Shown one piece after another: positions 27,921-42,302 of a stretch of DNA of 48,168 nt. Source of the DNA: Candidatus Altiarchaeales archaeon (lineage in GTDB: Archaea; Altiarchaeota; Altiarchaeia; IMC4; SCGC-AAA252-I15); contig WJMO01000010.1 of assembly GCA_014727915.1 (NCBI GenBank), forward strand, positions 1-48,168, read 5' to 3'. A model generated the notes under the pieces. That model was not told the origin of the DNA, searched no databases, and saw nothing but the letters and a program-made list of their open reading frames with translations. The translations under genes were made by a program, and so were the position numbers. Positions within the stretch are counted from its first letter, which is position 1. Each line of letters begins with the position of its first letter.

Positions 27921-28949
27921 ATGACAGACGAGGAAGCCGAGGACCGGAGGCGTCGGTGGGATGTCATACACACGAGAGAGCAAGCAAGGAAACAGAACAT
28001 AACCCACTTCAAAAAGGCCATAGAAGAGGCCAGCGGCGCCAAGAAGACCCCGAAAAGCCTGCTTAAGCTGGTCATACACAGCGGGGGAATACGGTCGGGA
28101 GAGGCTTCGGAGGTGCTGGGCGTCAGCAGAGCCAATATAGACCTATGGGTCAGGGCCCTCGAGAAGAAGAACCTTGTGGAGATCGAGAGCAGAAAGCACC
28201 CAAACCCCACGATCAGACCCACCCACGCAGTCATATCGAAGGTGCGTAGGTTCCAGGACAAGAACAAGGAGCTCATAAAGGAACGGAAGGTCAGGACAGA
28301 CCTTGAGACCGAACTCGACAATAGAGCAAAGAGGATGGAGGGCCTGGAGGCGGAGTTGAAGCGCGAACGGCTTCTGAGGTCCCAGCTCGAGGAGAAGCTC
28401 ATACTAACAGACGAGAGGCTCAGGGCAGACGAAGAGGACTTTCTGGACCAGACGACAGACGACATAATGTCAGACATCCAGGAGGGGGAGGTTTTCCTGG
28501 ACTCCGGGTCAACATACCTGCTTTTGGAGGAACGCCCCGATAAGAGCGTCAAACTGTTCCAGAAGGGTTTGGAGGACGGGTCCAAGGGCATGTACATAAC
28601 AAGGTCCAACCCCCGGAAGGTAAGGGACAGACACGACCTGGGAGACACTACCATATGCTGGCTCACCAACGTCCAGGCCGACGGGGACATCATATCGGTG
28701 TCGGGTCTTCAGGACCTTAGCATACTCGTGAGTAACTTCATAGACGAGAACGAAGGGAGCGTGATATTATTGGATGGGTTGGAGTATCTGGTGAGCAACA
28801 ACGACTTCCCGATAGTCCTGAGGCTGGTGCAGCAGATCAGGGACAAAGTCAGCACCTCAGAGTCCAAGATGCTGATACCATTGAACCCCAAGGCGTTGGA
28901 CAGCAAGCAGCTGACACTGCTGGAGAGGGAGTGCCAGACCATCAGATGA
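27921..28949 (+). CDS. wHTH - coiled coil - DUF835 (inactive KaiC/RecA-like) protein
   Basis: EASEVLGVSRANIDLWVRALEKKNLVEI (wHTH); GMYITRSNP, WLT, VILLDGLEYLVSNNDF, LLERE (DUF835). Confidence 0.82.
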   Translation: MTDEEAEDRRRRWDVIHTREQARKQNITHFKKAIEEASGAKKTPKSLLKLVIHSGGIRSGEASEVLGVSRANIDLWVRALEKKNLVEIESRKHPNPTIRPTHAVISKVRRFQDKNKELIKERKVRTDLETELDNRAKRMEGLEAELKRERLLRSQLEEKLILTDERLRADEEDFLDQTTDDIMSDIQEGEVFLDSGSTYLLLEERPDKSVKLFQKGLEDGSKGMYITRSNPRKVRDRHDLGDTTICWLTNVQADGDIISVSGLQDLSILVSNFIDENEGSVILLDGLEYLVSNNDFPIVLRLVQQIRDKVSTSESKMLIPLNPKALDSKQLTLLERECQTIR

Positions 28950-28990: not shown

Positions 28991-30577
28991 GTGGAAGACA
29001 AACTGGGAGGCCCGGGGAGGGAGCAGAACATAGAACTCTACAAGAGGCTTATGAACGAGTTCGCAGGCAGCAAGAGATCCCCCAAGGGGCTTTTGAAGCT
29101 GATAATACACGCGGGTACCGTGCACGCGATAGACGCGTCCGAGATACTGGGGGTGAAGATCACCACAGTAAACGAGTGGATAGGGCTCCTGAAGAAGAAG
29201 CGGCTAATCGAAGTTGACGGGCGTCAGCCCAACCCGAGGGTAAGGCCCACGAAAGAGCTGCTAGAGAGGCTTAAGAGCAAGGACCGCGCCCGGGAGAGGG
29301 ATTTCAAAGAGGATCTTAGGACCGAGTTGGACAGCGAAGACAAGCCCATAGTAGTAGAAGACCTCAAGGAAGAGCTGCTGGCCGAGAAGAAGGCGAGAGC
29401 ACGTCTTGAAGAGGACATAGAACGTGTGAAGCGGGAGGAGCATGAGAGGTCCGAGCAGAGGATTAACGAGTTGGAGAAGCGCCTGCAGAGGGAGGAGATA
29501 GAGAGGAGCAAGGTAGAGGAGATACTCAAGAAGAAGAGCCGGGAGGTGGAGGAGCTGACAGCCGAGGTCATGGCGTTGAAGGAGCGGGCAGCCAAACTTC
29601 AGAAAAACCTGGAAGACGAGAGGGGGGAGGAGCCGGCACACAGAACGACGGCAGAAGCCGGGAGTACGGCCGCAACCGACCCGACAAAAAAGACGCTGAA
29701 GACTCCAACACCCGTTGGGACCCCTCACCCCCAAGCAGACGAACCCGCGCCAAAACCGGCACAAAAGGGGATTAGAGAAGCTGCCGGAGAGCAGCAGAGA
29801 CCTCCACAGGCTAGTAGAGCCGGGCCTGGCGGAGACTCTCCAACGGGGGAGCAGAGGGCGCCAACGCCGGCGGCTCCCACACCAAAGCCCGCAGGGCAGA
29901 CGTCAGGCCAGGACAAGCCCATGGCGTCAACCCAGGATAAAATAGCAGGCAGCGGAGGCGCAAAGCCGCTGCCGGAAGCTCCTGCGAGTAGCATGGCGTC
30001 TTCTGCCGCTACATCACCAACCGCTCCACAGCCGCCTAGGCAGGTGGCTCCACCACAGCCAATAGCCACTCCGGAATCCCGTGAAAGCATGCAAGAGAAT
30101 GTGAAGGCCAAGCCCGCCCAGCCGGAAGAGGATGTCGGACGCCCGAGGACTCCATGGGAGGCCATTAGCGAACCAGGAACGCCCGGTGGGGGAGGAGAGC
30201 TGGAATCCAAGATACTCGGCAGGATGTCGCCTGGAGCCGGGTCTGCCAGGTCGGAATCTCAGGCCTCAACACCCAAAAAAGCAGAGTCAGGCCCCGAAGG
30301 GGAAGACGGCGAAAAGGACAAGGACAGCCTTTTGAAGGTGCTGCTGCAGACCGAGAGCCTAAAGGCAAAGGACGCGGCCTCCATGTTAGGGGTGGACGAA
30401 GGCGCTGTGAAAAAGTGGGTGGACGAACTCGCCAAAGCCAACCTCGTGGAAGCCAAGAAGTCCATGCTCGGATCAGTAGAGATAAGGCTCATAGAAGGGG
30501 TTGACAAGGAGAAGATAAAGGGGGAGCTGGAGGCCGCCGAGATAAGGAAGGAGTTGAAGAGAATAAGGGGCAAGTAG
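28991..30577 (+). CDS. wHTH - coiled coil - Pro/Ala-rich disordered linker - wHTH protein
   Basis: N-terminal domain paralogous to the upstream gene; C-terminal DAASMLGVDEGAVKKWVDELAKANLVE. Confidence 0.78.
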   Translation: MEDKLGGPGREQNIELYKRLMNEFAGSKRSPKGLLKLIIHAGTVHAIDASEILGVKITTVNEWIGLLKKKRLIEVDGRQPNPRVRPTKELLERLKSKDRARERDFKEDLRTELDSEDKPIVVEDLKEELLAEKKARARLEEDIERVKREEHERSEQRINELEKRLQREEIERSKVEEILKKKSREVEELTAEVMALKERAAKLQKNLEDERGEEPAHRTTAEAGSTAATDPTKKTLKTPTPVGTPHPQADEPAPKPAQKGIREAAGEQQRPPQASRAGPGGDSPTGEQRAPTPAAPTPKPAGQTSGQDKPMASTQDKIAGSGGAKPLPEAPASSMASSAATSPTAPQPPRQVAPPQPIATPESRESMQENVKAKPAQPEEDVGRPRTPWEAISEPGTPGGGGELESKILGRMSPGAGSARSESQASTPKKAESGPEGEDGEKDKDSLLKVLLQTESLKAKDAASMLGVDEGAVKKWVDELAKANLVEAKKSMLGSVEIRLIEGVDKEKIKGELEAAEIRKELKRIRGK

Positions 30578-30578
30578 G

Positions 30579-31877
30579 ATGGCCACCCTGATAGTGAACT
30601 CCGGAAGATGCAGCCACGGCAGATGCTACTTCTGCGGATACGGTAGGATAAGGGGTTTCGAACCGGCCGTCGAGAACGTCAACCAATGCCTGGACAGGTT
30701 CTTCAAAGATTTGGGAGATGATGAGGTGAAGGTCTTCGGTTCCGGGAGCTTCCTGGACGAGAAGCAGATACCGGCCGATTCCAGGATGTATTTCATAGGA
30801 AAGTGCAGGGAGCATGGGGTAAAGAGGGTCACAATAGAGTCCAGGCCAGAGTATGTGAACCCTGAAGTTTTGGAGGAGTTCAGAGGACTGGAACTGACGG
30901 TCGCCATGGGCTTGGAAACCGCGGATGAAAGGCTGCTGGAGAAGCTGAACAAGGGATACGGGCGGAGAGAATACGAGGAGGCATCCGACATAATACACAG
31001 GTCAGGGGGAGAGGTGAGGACATACCTCCTCGTCAACCCCCCGTTCGCAAAGGACATAAAGGAGGGTTTGGGGGAGAGCGTGGACTACGCGCTCAAACAT
31101 TCCGACAGCATCGTGCTGATAAACATGCTGCCCCACAAGAACTCTCCGTTGATGAAGGATTATGCGAGCGGGGAATGGAACTTCCTGTCGAGGGAGGAGT
31201 TCAGGGAGACCACAGCGGAGTGGAGTGATGATAATCGGGTTGAATTGGACGAGGAGACCTACAGGTTCACCCCCAACTTCCCCGATGAGATGAGAGAGAA
31301 GTTGAAGGGTGTTGGAGAATGGCACCTCACCCACCCACACTTCGAAGTCTGGCAGGACTACCTCATAAGATGGTACAGGCCACCTGAAGGCAGAATACTA
31401 GTGTTCCTACCCTGCGCGTACAGGAAGCCTTACTCGCAGAGCAGAACACACCAGGGGATAATCGAGGCGTTGAGGAAGGCAGGCCGGAACAGTTTCCACG
31501 AGGTGATGCTGTCGAACGCGGGAGTGATACCAAGGGAGTTCGAAGACCACTACCCATTCAACAGCTACGACTGGGACGAGCGGCTTGAGACTCCGGAGAT
31601 AAAGAGGAGATACATAGAGGTTACTGGGGGGAGGATACGGGACTATTTAACAGAACATGGAAAATACTATAAGAGGGTCGTCTGCTTCCTAAAGCACGAC
31701 AGCGAATCTTACAAGGCATTGGAGGGGGCTTGCAGGGAGACCGGGTACGATATCAAGAACCTGCTGTCGGAGGATACGTACGAGAGGATAAGGGGGGAGG
31801 AGCGGCCACTGCAGGCCAGGGAGGCAATGGAGGACTTGGAAAAGGGCTTAAGATGGTGTCTGGAAAATTCCATGTGA
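30579..31877 (+). CDS. Radical SAM (RaSEA-like) - ArcS catalytic domain (DUF5591-like) fusion, archaeosine biosynthesis
   Basis: GRCSHGRCYFCGY, KVFGSGSFLD, IESRPE, GLET, YLLVNPPF; C-terminal FLPCAYRKPYSQSRTH, GVIPRE, YP..SYD. Confidence 0.82.
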   Translation: MATLIVNSGRCSHGRCYFCGYGRIRGFEPAVENVNQCLDRFFKDLGDDEVKVFGSGSFLDEKQIPADSRMYFIGKCREHGVKRVTIESRPEYVNPEVLEEFRGLELTVAMGLETADERLLEKLNKGYGRREYEEASDIIHRSGGEVRTYLLVNPPFAKDIKEGLGESVDYALKHSDSIVLINMLPHKNSPLMKDYASGEWNFLSREEFRETTAEWSDDNRVELDEETYRFTPNFPDEMREKLKGVGEWHLTHPHFEVWQDYLIRWYRPPEGRILVFLPCAYRKPYSQSRTHQGIIEALRKAGRNSFHEVMLSNAGVIPREFEDHYPFNSYDWDERLETPEIKRRYIEVTGGRIRDYLTEHGKYYKRVVCFLKHDSESYKALEGACRETGYDIKNLLSEDTYERIRGEERPLQAREAMEDLEKGLRWCLENSM

Positions 31878-32583: not shown

Positions 32584-33282
32584 ATGGAGGTAATACCCGC
32601 CATCGACCTCATGGATGGTAGATGCGTCCAGCTCGTTGGAGGCGACCCGAACACCAAGAAAGACTATGGAGACCCTGTTGGGCGGGGCGTAGGGTGGAAG
32701 GAGAAGGGCGCCAGGACACTGCACGTAGTCGACCTGGACGCTGCGCTCGAAAGGGGCAGCAACCTCAACATACTGACGGATCTGAAGCGGCAGACCAGGC
32801 TGACATTGGAGTTCGGAGGGGGCATACGGACCGAAGAGAAGATGATGGAGCTGCTGAGGCTCGACATCGACAGGATCATAATAGGCACGCTGGCTCTAAA
32901 GGACTTCACCAACGACTTCGAGATACTGAAGTCCGTGAACGATGAGTTCGGAGAGAAGAGGGTGATGGTCGCATTGGACACCAAGGAGGGGCATGTGACA
33001 ATAAAGGGATGGACCGAGAAGACCAGCTTGAAGGCGGTGGACCTGATAGAGGCGAGCGAAGAGTACGTGTGGGGTTACCTCTACACGGACGTCGATGCGG
33101 AGGGAAAGATGATGGGAGTCGACGAGGGGAGGTTCAAGGAGGTTCTCAACGCCACTGACAAGCCGGTCATACTCTCCGGTGGCGTGTCGAGCAGGGAGGA
33201 CATAGACTTCTGCCGTGACGCGGGCGCATGGGGTGTGGTCGTCGGGAAGGCATTATATGAAGGCAAAGTCACTCTTGAATAG
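32584..33282 (+). CDS. hisA: ProFAR isomerase
   Basis: IPAIDLMDGRCVQL, LHVVDLD, GGGIR, VALD, SGGV, VGKALY. Confidence 0.95.
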   Translation: MEVIPAIDLMDGRCVQLVGGDPNTKKDYGDPVGRGVGWKEKGARTLHVVDLDAALERGSNLNILTDLKRQTRLTLEFGGGIRTEEKMMELLRLDIDRIIIGTLALKDFTNDFEILKSVNDEFGEKRVMVALDTKEGHVTIKGWTEKTSLKAVDLIEASEEYVWGYLYTDVDAEGKMMGVDEGRFKEVLNATDKPVILSGGVSSREDIDFCRDAGAWGVVVGKALYEGKVTLE

Positions 33283-41624: not shown

Positions 41625-42302
41625 CTAGGACACCACAGAGGTCCCCTTGAACGGCCTTCCCTCAATGGCTGAGCGCATGTTCCCCAGGTCCCTACCATCC
41701 AGGACCAGAGTCCTTATGCTGGAACGCTTGATCACCTTCAAGGCCACATGGTCCAGTAGCGGATATTCTCCCGCGTTCATTCCCTCGCCTTCCAAGAGGA
41801 CTATGAGGTCATCGACGCTTATCTCCTCCAGCGGCTTGGCATCATCATTTTCCCAGGGGTTCTTGTCGTAGACGGCGTCCACGTTGGATGCGTTCACGAA
41901 AAGGTCCGCCTTCACCCAGTCCGCGAGCAGGCATGCCACCGCATCCGTAGAATGGCCGGGTTCGGTGCCGCCCATCACGAGTATCCGGTCACCGAACAAA
42001 GAAGCTGCCTCGTGTATTGACTCTGGGATGGCTTCCACCGCAAGGTCTCCGAGAGCATCAGCCAAAACCCTCGCATTCTCCCGTGTGGCCAATATGCCCA
42101 CGTGGTCGCACTCAGCCCATGAAGCGCCCTTCGCACGCGCGACCGAGATTTTCTCCCTGGCTGGGCGGCCGCCGCCAACGACCACTGCAACCTCGTTACC
42201 CTCGGATATCCCCGAGAGAAACGATGAAACCTTGCCGACGTAATCGCCGTCAACCCCTTCTGGAGCCAATATGCTCCCCCCTATGGAGAAGACTATCTTC
42301 AT
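41625..42302 (-). CDS. pyrH: UMP kinase, archaeal type
   Basis: Start ATG 42302 MKIVFSIGGS; VVGGG, MGGTEPGHSTDAVA, NVDAVYDKNP. Confidence 0.93.
   Translation of the reverse strand: MKIVFSIGGSILAPEGVDGDYVGKVSSFLSGISEGNEVAVVVGGGRPAREKISVARAKGASWAECDHVGILATRENARVLADALGDLAVEAIPESIHEAASLFGDRILVMGGTEPGHSTDAVACLLADWVKADLFVNASNVDAVYDKNPWENDDAKPLEEISVDDLIVLLEGEGMNAGEYPLLDHVALKVIKRSSIRTLVLDGRDLGNMRSAIEGRPFKGTSVVS

Follow-up and report, generated by a model that had tools for sequence, protein, structure and literature searches.

The stretch analysed here, hereafter the window, is a 48,168-nt contig (WJMO01000010.1) from the assembly of a Candidatus Altiarchaeales archaeon (GCA_014727915.1), and our subject is a single gene on its plus strand that joins a radical S-adenosylmethionine (SAM) domain of the RaSEA type to the C1 domain of the archaeosine synthase ArcS. 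The gene is an ATG-started open reading frame (ORF) of 432 amino acids (aa), which begins 1 nt past the stop codon of the upstream ORF 28991..30577 (Table 1). In the N-terminal half of the translation we located the motifs C11-x4-C16-x2-C19, S55-G-S-F-L-D60, E87-S-R-P-E91, G111-L-E-T114 and Y149-L-L-V-N-P-P-F156. The C-terminal half contains P278-C-AYR-K283-P-Y-SQ-S288-RT-H291, an exact copy of the ArcS motif PC-x3-KPY-x2-S-x2-H as given in the accessible portions of PMC10516641 and PMC5699537.

Profile searches assign the two halves to two families, at scores well beyond chance. Pfam detects Radical_SAM (PF04055) at residues 9–153 (E 1.9e-14, 54.6 bits, cut-off 29.5) and DUF5591 (PF17884) at residues 258–393 (E 6.4e-20, 72 bits, cut-off 26). 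Among the NCBIfam models, the RaSEA family TIGR01210 ranks first, matching residues 3–159 over profile positions 17–184 of 313 (E 1.5e-34), and the ArcS equivalogs NF040592 (E 1.2e-20) and NF053620 (E 9.2e-18) match residues 222–375. Much weaker matches are found to MnmL/YtqA (TIGR01212, E 1.2e-9) and Elp3 (TIGR01211, E 3.2e-5), and every one of these NCBIfam scores stays under its equivalog cut-off. The Pfam scan of the 432-aa protein returns Radical_SAM and DUF5591 only, with no TGT, TGT_C2 or PUA domain, and neither C2 nor PUA nor any other Pfam domain follows residue 393. A preliminary description of this DNA had claimed RaSEA hallmarks for the N-terminal half and an exact ArcS signature for the C-terminal domain; every motif that it quoted is present, and the RaSEA and DUF5591 profiles, which it had proposed as a check, each match their half (119.7 and 72 bits). 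Its further claim that both enzymes are contained in 432 aa without a TGT-like barrel or PUA domain also holds, as Pfam finds neither.

Table 1. Coordinates in the window of the fused gene and its parts
Feature	Position	Strand	Basis
Whole gene, fused RaSEA-core/ArcS-C1 protein (P0001)	30579..31877	+	ORF, domain matches; stop codon included
Radical-SAM (RaSEA-type) half, residues 1–235	30579..31283	+	TIGR01210, tree, RaSEA relatives, Foldseek
C11-x4-C16-x2-C19, predicted [4Fe-4S]/SAM cluster motif	30609..30635	+	Translation, family alignment
Bridge between halves, ~residues 216–257	31224..31349	+	Alignment with 6 stand-alone RaSEAs
DUF5591/ArcS C1 catalytic domain, residues 258–393	31350..31757	+	PF17884, NF040592, NF053620, 2q07
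ArcS signature P278-C-x3-K-P-Y-x2-S-x2-H291	31410..31451	+	Translation; motif per PMC10516641, PMC5699537
C-terminal strand and helices closing C1, residues 394–432	31758..31874	+	AlphaFold2; helices 398–404, 414–429

The gene belongs to a large family with a conserved architecture. A word-indexed homologue search returned 709 proteins with E<=1e-3, and we read the architecture of the 120 listed. These are 350–464 aa long; all contain PF17884 and 118 also PF04055. They carry the names 'DUF5591 domain-containing protein', 'hypothetical protein', 'archaeosine synthase' or 'archaeosine synthase alpha-subunit', and the nearest named homologues come from Candidatus Altiarchaeota metagenome-assembled genomes. 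In the 120-row family alignment C11, C16 and C19 are invariant, further invariant positions include G56, D60, Q63, E87, G111, K125, Y149, S288 and H307, and C279, K283, P284, Y285, T290 and H291 are conserved in at least 90% of the rows. Twenty-four of 25 diverse fused members keep the ArcS motif, which is degenerate in P0125. Forty genome-contig loci hold relatives of the gene; judged by record title, 17 of them are from Altiarchaeota/Altiarchaeales and 13 from archaea given no further name; the remaining 10 are from Aenigmatarchaeota (3), Thermodiscus (2), Micrarchaeota, 'Methanobacteriota', Acidilobaceae, Thermoproteaceae and Thermoproteales (1 each). Two ESM Atlas clusters share the fused architecture, one of 93 members (commonest phylum Altarchaeota) and one of 75 (commonest Thermoproteota). 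Because the architecture recurs on many independent contigs, we rejected a mis-assembly or gene-calling artefact as its origin. A search for fused forms longer than 756 aa gave one unrelated match only, and a blank in that search is weak evidence.

Several relatives depart from this pattern. In P0122 (635 aa), also a fused member, ~200 aa are inserted between the halves. In the metagenomic protein P0187 (497 aa, on a 2248-nt contig; source name 'predicted RNA-binding protein') the order is reversed: a partial DUF5591, TGT_C2 and PUA precede a RaSEA-type radical-SAM domain that scores 202.5 bits against TIGR01210. This single sequence, which needs confirmation, suggests that ArcS and RaSEA genes were joined a second time, in another way. 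At G015:C39:9788-10914, in a genome that is 60% complete, the RaSEA-like part is broken by one TAG and one TAA codon and the DUF5591 part lies in an open frame of 322 aa; this interrupted copy may be a pseudogene or reflect an error of assembly.

We compared the radical-SAM half with stand-alone RaSEAs. An exhaustive HMMER search with residues 1–235 yielded 926 matches at E<=1e-3, for which 150 representatives were listed. Fused proteins and fragments make up the top tier (E<=1e-24), and 15 of the 150 representatives carry a C-terminal DUF5591; the next tier is formed by proteins of 320–360 aa, and all four of those scanned are genuine RaSEAs (343–358 bits). An IQ-TREE phylogeny was calculated from 53 rows: the window domain, 12 fused members, 7 fragments, 4 proteins of odd architecture, 21 stand-alone RaSEAs, 5 YtqA and 3 Elp3 sequences. 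It omits 31 of the 150 representatives, which have a partial domain, and the long-branch sequences P0215, P0237 and P0254, and of 93 stand-alone sequences 47 were kept after a first thinning and 21 after a second. MnmL/YtqA and Elp3 are tRNA-modification enzymes of the same broad radical-SAM subgroup, but the fused clade and the stand-alone RaSEAs are united against both with a support of 100/100 on a branch of length 2.04. The preliminary description would have been contradicted by a radical-SAM domain outside the RaSEA clade; the domain groups with RaSEA, yet as a sister and not as a nested member. Earlier trees agree, and judged by these phylogenies the radical-SAM half is a distinct sister subfamily within the RaSEA radiation. 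P0140 (544 aa) lies in the fused clade although it has no DUF5591, and neither Pfam nor the fused-family profile recognizes its first 312 residues.

Comparison of four fused members with six stand-alone RaSEAs revealed a common core, in which the cluster cysteine triad, S55, G56, S57, E87, G111, L112, E113, K125 and Y149 are invariant. Unlike the fused proteins, the stand-alone enzymes have an N-terminal extension and a C-terminal H-N-C-G-K-C-D...C-x-C tail; to treat these two parts as defining for RaSEA is our own reading of the alignment and follows no published definition. The first cluster cysteine is found at residue 7–39 in the fused proteins and at a median of 52 in the stand-alone ones, and the spacing C-x4-C-x2-C, present in 12 of 13 fused representatives, is replaced by x7-9 in 66 of 81 stand-alone RaSEAs. 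In the alignment, the bridge between the two halves takes the place of the C-x2-C...C-x-C tail, and P232, G244 and W258 in this region are among the residues conserved in the fused family. The gene, as read from these alignments, is a trimmed fusion and not a plain end-to-end join; the NCBIfam models for the separate enzymes are 575 (ArcS) and 313 (RaSEA) positions long. The minimal fused enzyme of the preliminary description therefore stands as a fusion, but with both halves trimmed and with the RaSEA N-terminal extension and four-cysteine tail gone.

An AlphaFold2 model calculated with the 120-row alignment has a mean predicted local distance difference test (pLDDT) score of 96.6 and a predicted template modelling score of 0.89, with no disordered linker; pLDDT in the bridge is 91–98. 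The model points to one rigid two-domain body whose halves keep a set position relative to each other; the RaSEA-type half is physically tied to the ArcS C1 domain by the covalent join. Foldseek comparison of the whole model is dominated by radical-SAM barrels, with Elp3 on top and MgmA, viperin and HydE also returned. An ArcS-RaSEA complex was found neither among the Foldseek chains listed nor in our PDB searches. PDB entry 2q07 (see below) was likewise not among the chains listed, so that the fold match of the C1 domain comes from sequence comparison. A homodimer prediction scored 0.14 (mark 0.42) and weighs neither for nor against any reading.

We next consider the genomic company of the gene. 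As contig C7, the window forms part of a genome of 1.81 Mb (G000; 13 contigs, 90.6% complete). This genome has one DUF5591 and one RaSEA-like match, both inside the fused gene, and one arcTGT of 570 aa with TGT, TGT_C2 and PUA domains. No other ArcS or RaSEA was found in the genome; the preliminary description had advised a check for arcTGT and a separate arcS. A profile search detects no second TGT_C2 domain in the genome, and hence no split-off C2-PUA piece of ArcS elsewhere. The genome encodes its own YtqA (309 bits) and Elp3 (769 bits), each separate from the fused gene; since genuine copies of both exist, we rejected the radical-SAM half as the orthologue of either.

A phyletic scan of 61 genomes of the phylum, the window's genome included, links the fused gene to arcTGT. 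DUF5591 is present in 48 of the genomes (12 of the 13 high-quality ones) and arcTGT in 51; fused gene and arcTGT occur together in 47 and are jointly missing from nine, namely all eight genomes of family f9 (G053–G060) and G032 (91% complete). Among the five discordant genomes, G047 (67% complete) has the fused gene alone and four (70–87% complete) have arcTGT alone. None of the 61 genomes contains a RaSEA above the TIGR01210 cut-off. A RaSEA-like match of at least 73 bits occurs in 46 genomes, in 45 of them immediately 5' of DUF5591 on the same contig and strand, and 45 of the 48 DUF5591-positive genomes have the two halves side by side on a single contig and strand; in G048 they lie on two contigs. 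Family f9 has neither QueC, arcTGT nor the fused gene in any of its eight members; its PTPS is found in seven, which marks PTPS as not specific to the archaeosine (G+) pathway, and YtqA in six. Beyond the phylum, one arcTGT each is present in five carriers (Thermodiscus, Micrarchaeota, two Aenigmatarchaeota and Thermoproteaceae), and their sole RaSEA-like match is again inside the fused gene. In three of the 40 related loci, all from distant relatives (L040, L043 and L049), arcTGT is encoded upstream on the opposite strand, at a distance of ~3 kb or less.

The preliminary description had also called for a search for queCDE, and this part of the pathway did not turn up. In the window's genome QueD/PTPS has no match, QueC is represented by seven weak PP-loop matches only (best 28 bits, within the first 73 of 210 profile positions), and the best score for QueE (TIGR03365) is 24.8 bits, where the cut-off is 206. 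The phylum scan finds QueC missing from the window's genus as well as from f9. The genome encodes two genes of the Vut_1/YhhQ family (158.6 and 125.3 bits), which we take to be preQ0 importers; they are located outside the window at G000:C12:485707-486192 and G000:C3:86295-86765. Both genomes of the genus (G000 and G051) are without QueC and PTPS/QueD and carry two Vut_1/YhhQ genes each, and at E<=1e-10 the family is present in just 3 of the 61 genomes of the phylum. The genus seems to have exchanged preQ0 synthesis for import, with arcTGT and the fused gene retained.

The neighbours of the fused gene encode a subtilase, a Hef-type helicase-nuclease, a DUF835 protein, a helix-turn-helix protein, a HisA-family protein, a SAM hydroxide adenosyltransferase, TatD, a HAD hydrolase and an AIR-synthase-related protein. 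They are unrelated to the pathway and of a housekeeping kind, with no mobile element or defence island. In 20 of the 40 related loci the HisA-family gene (32584-33282, plus strand; 215 bits against His_biosynth) is found just downstream; TatD follows in 11 of the 40 and the SAM hydroxide adenosyltransferase in 7. This gene order is probably lineage synteny only, and we rejected a pathway link drawn from the neighbourhood within Altiarchaeota (HisA-family, TatD, Hef). Upstream, the adjacent plus-strand genes 27921-28949 and 28991-30577 have similar helix-turn-helix-like N-termini; the former ends in DUF835, the latter has a long low-complexity middle rich in Pro, Ala, Glu and Gly and a weak TrmB-like helix-turn-helix at its C-terminus, and the pair also precedes the fused gene in 7 of the 40 related loci. 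Elsewhere in the window, a tRNA-Ala(GGC) gene at 42115-42205 (minus strand) has 91 nt, more than is usual for a tRNA, and might contain an intron.

Among the closest known systems is the euryarchaeal ArcS-RaSEA complex, as in Thermococcus kodakarensis. According to the available text of PMC11298593, ArcS adds lysine to preQ0-15 and RaSEA turns the adduct into G+; free ArcS is inactive and lysine transfer is performed by the ArcS-RaSEA complex only, whereas ArcTGT does not bind ArcS. The same text lists RNA fragments, preQ0 nucleoside and its 5'-phosphate among the ArcS substrates, so that an L-shaped tRNA would not be required, and states that structures with tRNA are still needed. The fused protein resembles this system in its ArcS C1 motif, in its RaSEA-type core with the cluster cysteines, in its pathway place downstream of arcTGT and in the physical coupling of the two predicted activities. 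It differs in being a single 432-aa chain instead of two proteins and in departing from the four-domain architecture of ArcS, of which the TGT-like N-domain, C2 and PUA are missing. The ArcS/RaSEA route is described in the accessible portion of PMC11298593 for Euryarchaeota (196 species), with arcS missing from most Crenarchaea, whereas the fused form occurs in Altiarchaeota, other DPANN lineages and Thermoproteota.

ArcS forms with fewer domains, C1 alone included, exist according to the accessible part of PMC10516641. AF0587 from Archaeoglobus fulgidus (PDB 2q07, deposited as an uncharacterized protein) aligns with residues 262–407 of the fused protein (E 5.3e-9), PC..KPY..S..H included, and the fused protein likewise has no TGT-like N-domain; in contrast to it, AF0587 (306 aa) extends past the aligned C1 part (its residues 21–159) and contains no radical-SAM domain. 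Viral ArcS2 proteins (Vibrio phage nt-1 and Sulfolobus virus STSV2; 25–36% identity) are similarly cut down to the DUF5591 core, but stand alone, without a radical-SAM partner domain, and work with DpdA on DNA, whereas the fused gene resides in a cellular genome and tracks arcTGT. With STSV1 and PhiF1 added, viral stand-alone DUF5591 genes are 25–47% identical to the C-terminal half. The gene of Methanobacterium virus PhiF1 (L065, MK994522.1, ORF75), 47.5% identical to that half, is annotated 'putative archaeosine tRNA-guanine transglycosylase', with no radical-SAM gene annotated nearby; its tblastn match begins ~100 nt upstream of the annotated coding-sequence start.

Taken together, we regard the gene as probably encoding a putative single-chain G+ synthase that acts after arcTGT, an assignment that is supported by being in line with all available computational tests. 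Architecture, conservation, pathway context and phylogeny are observed here; for the chemistry, the amine donor and the tRNA substrate we infer the assignment from homology to the T. kodakarensis system. ArcTGT, encoded elsewhere in the genome, would insert preQ0 at tRNA position 15, the preQ0 in the window's genus being probably imported and not made. The C-terminal DUF5591/ArcS-C1 domain would then attach an amine donor, lysine being the likeliest, to the preQ0 nitrile, and the N-terminal RaSEA-type domain, using SAM and an iron-sulfur cluster bound by C11, C16 and C19, would cleave the adduct to give the formamidine of G+. The covalent join would replace the obligate ArcS-RaSEA complex, and with the join in place of a complex the RaSEA extension and tail as well as the ArcS TGT-like, C2 and PUA domains would be dispensable. 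Since ArcS is active only in the complex and works on the nucleoside, a fusion of the two cores makes sense and the loss of tRNA-binding domains appears tolerable; the lost parts of both enzymes would then serve docking or affinity, not chemistry. The preliminary description had concluded that such an enzyme must bind tRNA differently, a claim that we soften in view of the action of ArcS on preQ0 nucleoside reported in the available text of PMC11298593.

A number of observations weigh against this assignment, and several of them would also fit an enzyme that follows the same two-step logic with another amine donor, or toward a 7-deazaguanine product other than G+ such as a stable amino-acid adduct. 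Both halves score below the equivalog cut-offs of their families: the RaSEA match, to a partial profile, reaches 119.7 bits against 212.15, and the ArcS matches 73.6 against 440 (NF040592) and 63.9 against 600 bits (NF053620). The fused clade (21 rows, P0140 included) is sister to the RaSEAs and not nested among them, with moderate support for either side (fused 90/93; stand-alone RaSEA, 24 rows, 90/84), and long outgroup branches meet in this tree, as the program warns. A regular expression for the four-cysteine tail finds a match in 69 of the 86 stand-alone representatives but in none of the 13 fused proteins, and the chemistry may differ if this tail binds a catalytic metal. The nitrogen donor is moreover known to vary among ArcS enzymes; the accessible portion of PMC11298593 gives NH4+, Asn or Gln for Methanocaldococcus jannaschii ArcS and Lys for T. 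kodakarensis ArcS. We nevertheless consider a differing donor or product unlikely: the ArcS motif and the shared RaSEA core motifs (SGSF, ESRPE, GLE, K125, Y149) are conserved, the tail is also undetected by the regular expression in 17 of the 86 stand-alone RaSEAs, and the searches made of the window's genome reveal no other candidate G+ synthase domain. Further points against the single-chain synthase come from the pathway context. With QueC, QueD and a clear QueE missing from the window's genome, the supply of preQ0 would depend on the Vut_1-family pair and its presumed substrate. G032 has QueC and PTPS, and arcTGT and the fused gene are missing from it. The genomes scanned are related, so that the co-occurrence pattern amounts to only two independent joint absences.

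The protein also contains no RNA-binding domain recognizable by Pfam, which counts against the synthase as well and would be offset if the protein docked on arcTGT or on another RNA-binding protein and received preQ0-tRNA directly. ArcTGT carries C2 and PUA domains that would make up for those lost, it co-occurs tightly with the fused gene, and it lies nearby in the three distantly related loci mentioned above. However, consecutive steps of a pathway would be expected to co-occur even without physical contact, and ArcS modifies RNA fragments and even the nucleoside (PMC11298593, available text), which leaves the need for such a partner distinctly unlikely in our estimate. That the substrate is not tRNA at all, but DNA or free 7-deazaguanine nucleosides, as for the viral C1 proteins (ArcS2) that act with DpdA, seems to us very improbable. 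The resemblance of the C-terminal half to the viral genes and the formation of dG+ in DNA by ArcS2 and DpdA2 of Vibrio phage nt-1 (PMC10516641, accessible part) speak for it; but the sole TGT-family match in the genome is an arcTGT with PUA (a very divergent DpdA might escape PF01702), the fused gene tracks arcTGT across the phylum, and its neighbourhood is a housekeeping one with no mobile element or defence island.

As the fused clade is sister to all sampled stand-alone RaSEAs and spans DPANN and Thermoproteota, one may ask if it represents the ancestral minimal archaeal G+ synthase, from which the ArcS-RaSEA pair of Euryarchaeota arose by fission and capture of C1 into an arcTGT paralogue. 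We hold this scenario to be doubtful; if true, G+ synthesis would need neither a dedicated tRNA-binding domain nor the RaSEA four-cysteine site.

A fusion of trimmed RaSEA and ArcS cores in one chain seems not to have been described before. Our full-text literature searches found no description of it, though an earlier mention in founding papers or supplements is possible, and a radical-SAM partner domain is not mentioned in the accessible part of PMC10516641. The finding would correct the annotation of hundreds of entries now named 'DUF5591 domain-containing protein', 'hypothetical protein' or 'archaeosine synthase alpha-subunit'. A rigid chain of 432 aa with both predicted active sites is attractive for crystallography, cryo-EM and mechanistic work, and would offer a compact natural model of the archaeosine-finishing reaction, with two normally complexed enzymes in one polypeptide. 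Activity of the fused protein would mark the extension and four-cysteine tail of RaSEA, together with the TGT-like, C2 and PUA domains on the ArcS side, as accessory. The fused form would also widen the known range of the pathway beyond Euryarchaeota to Altiarchaeota, other DPANN lineages and some Thermoproteota.

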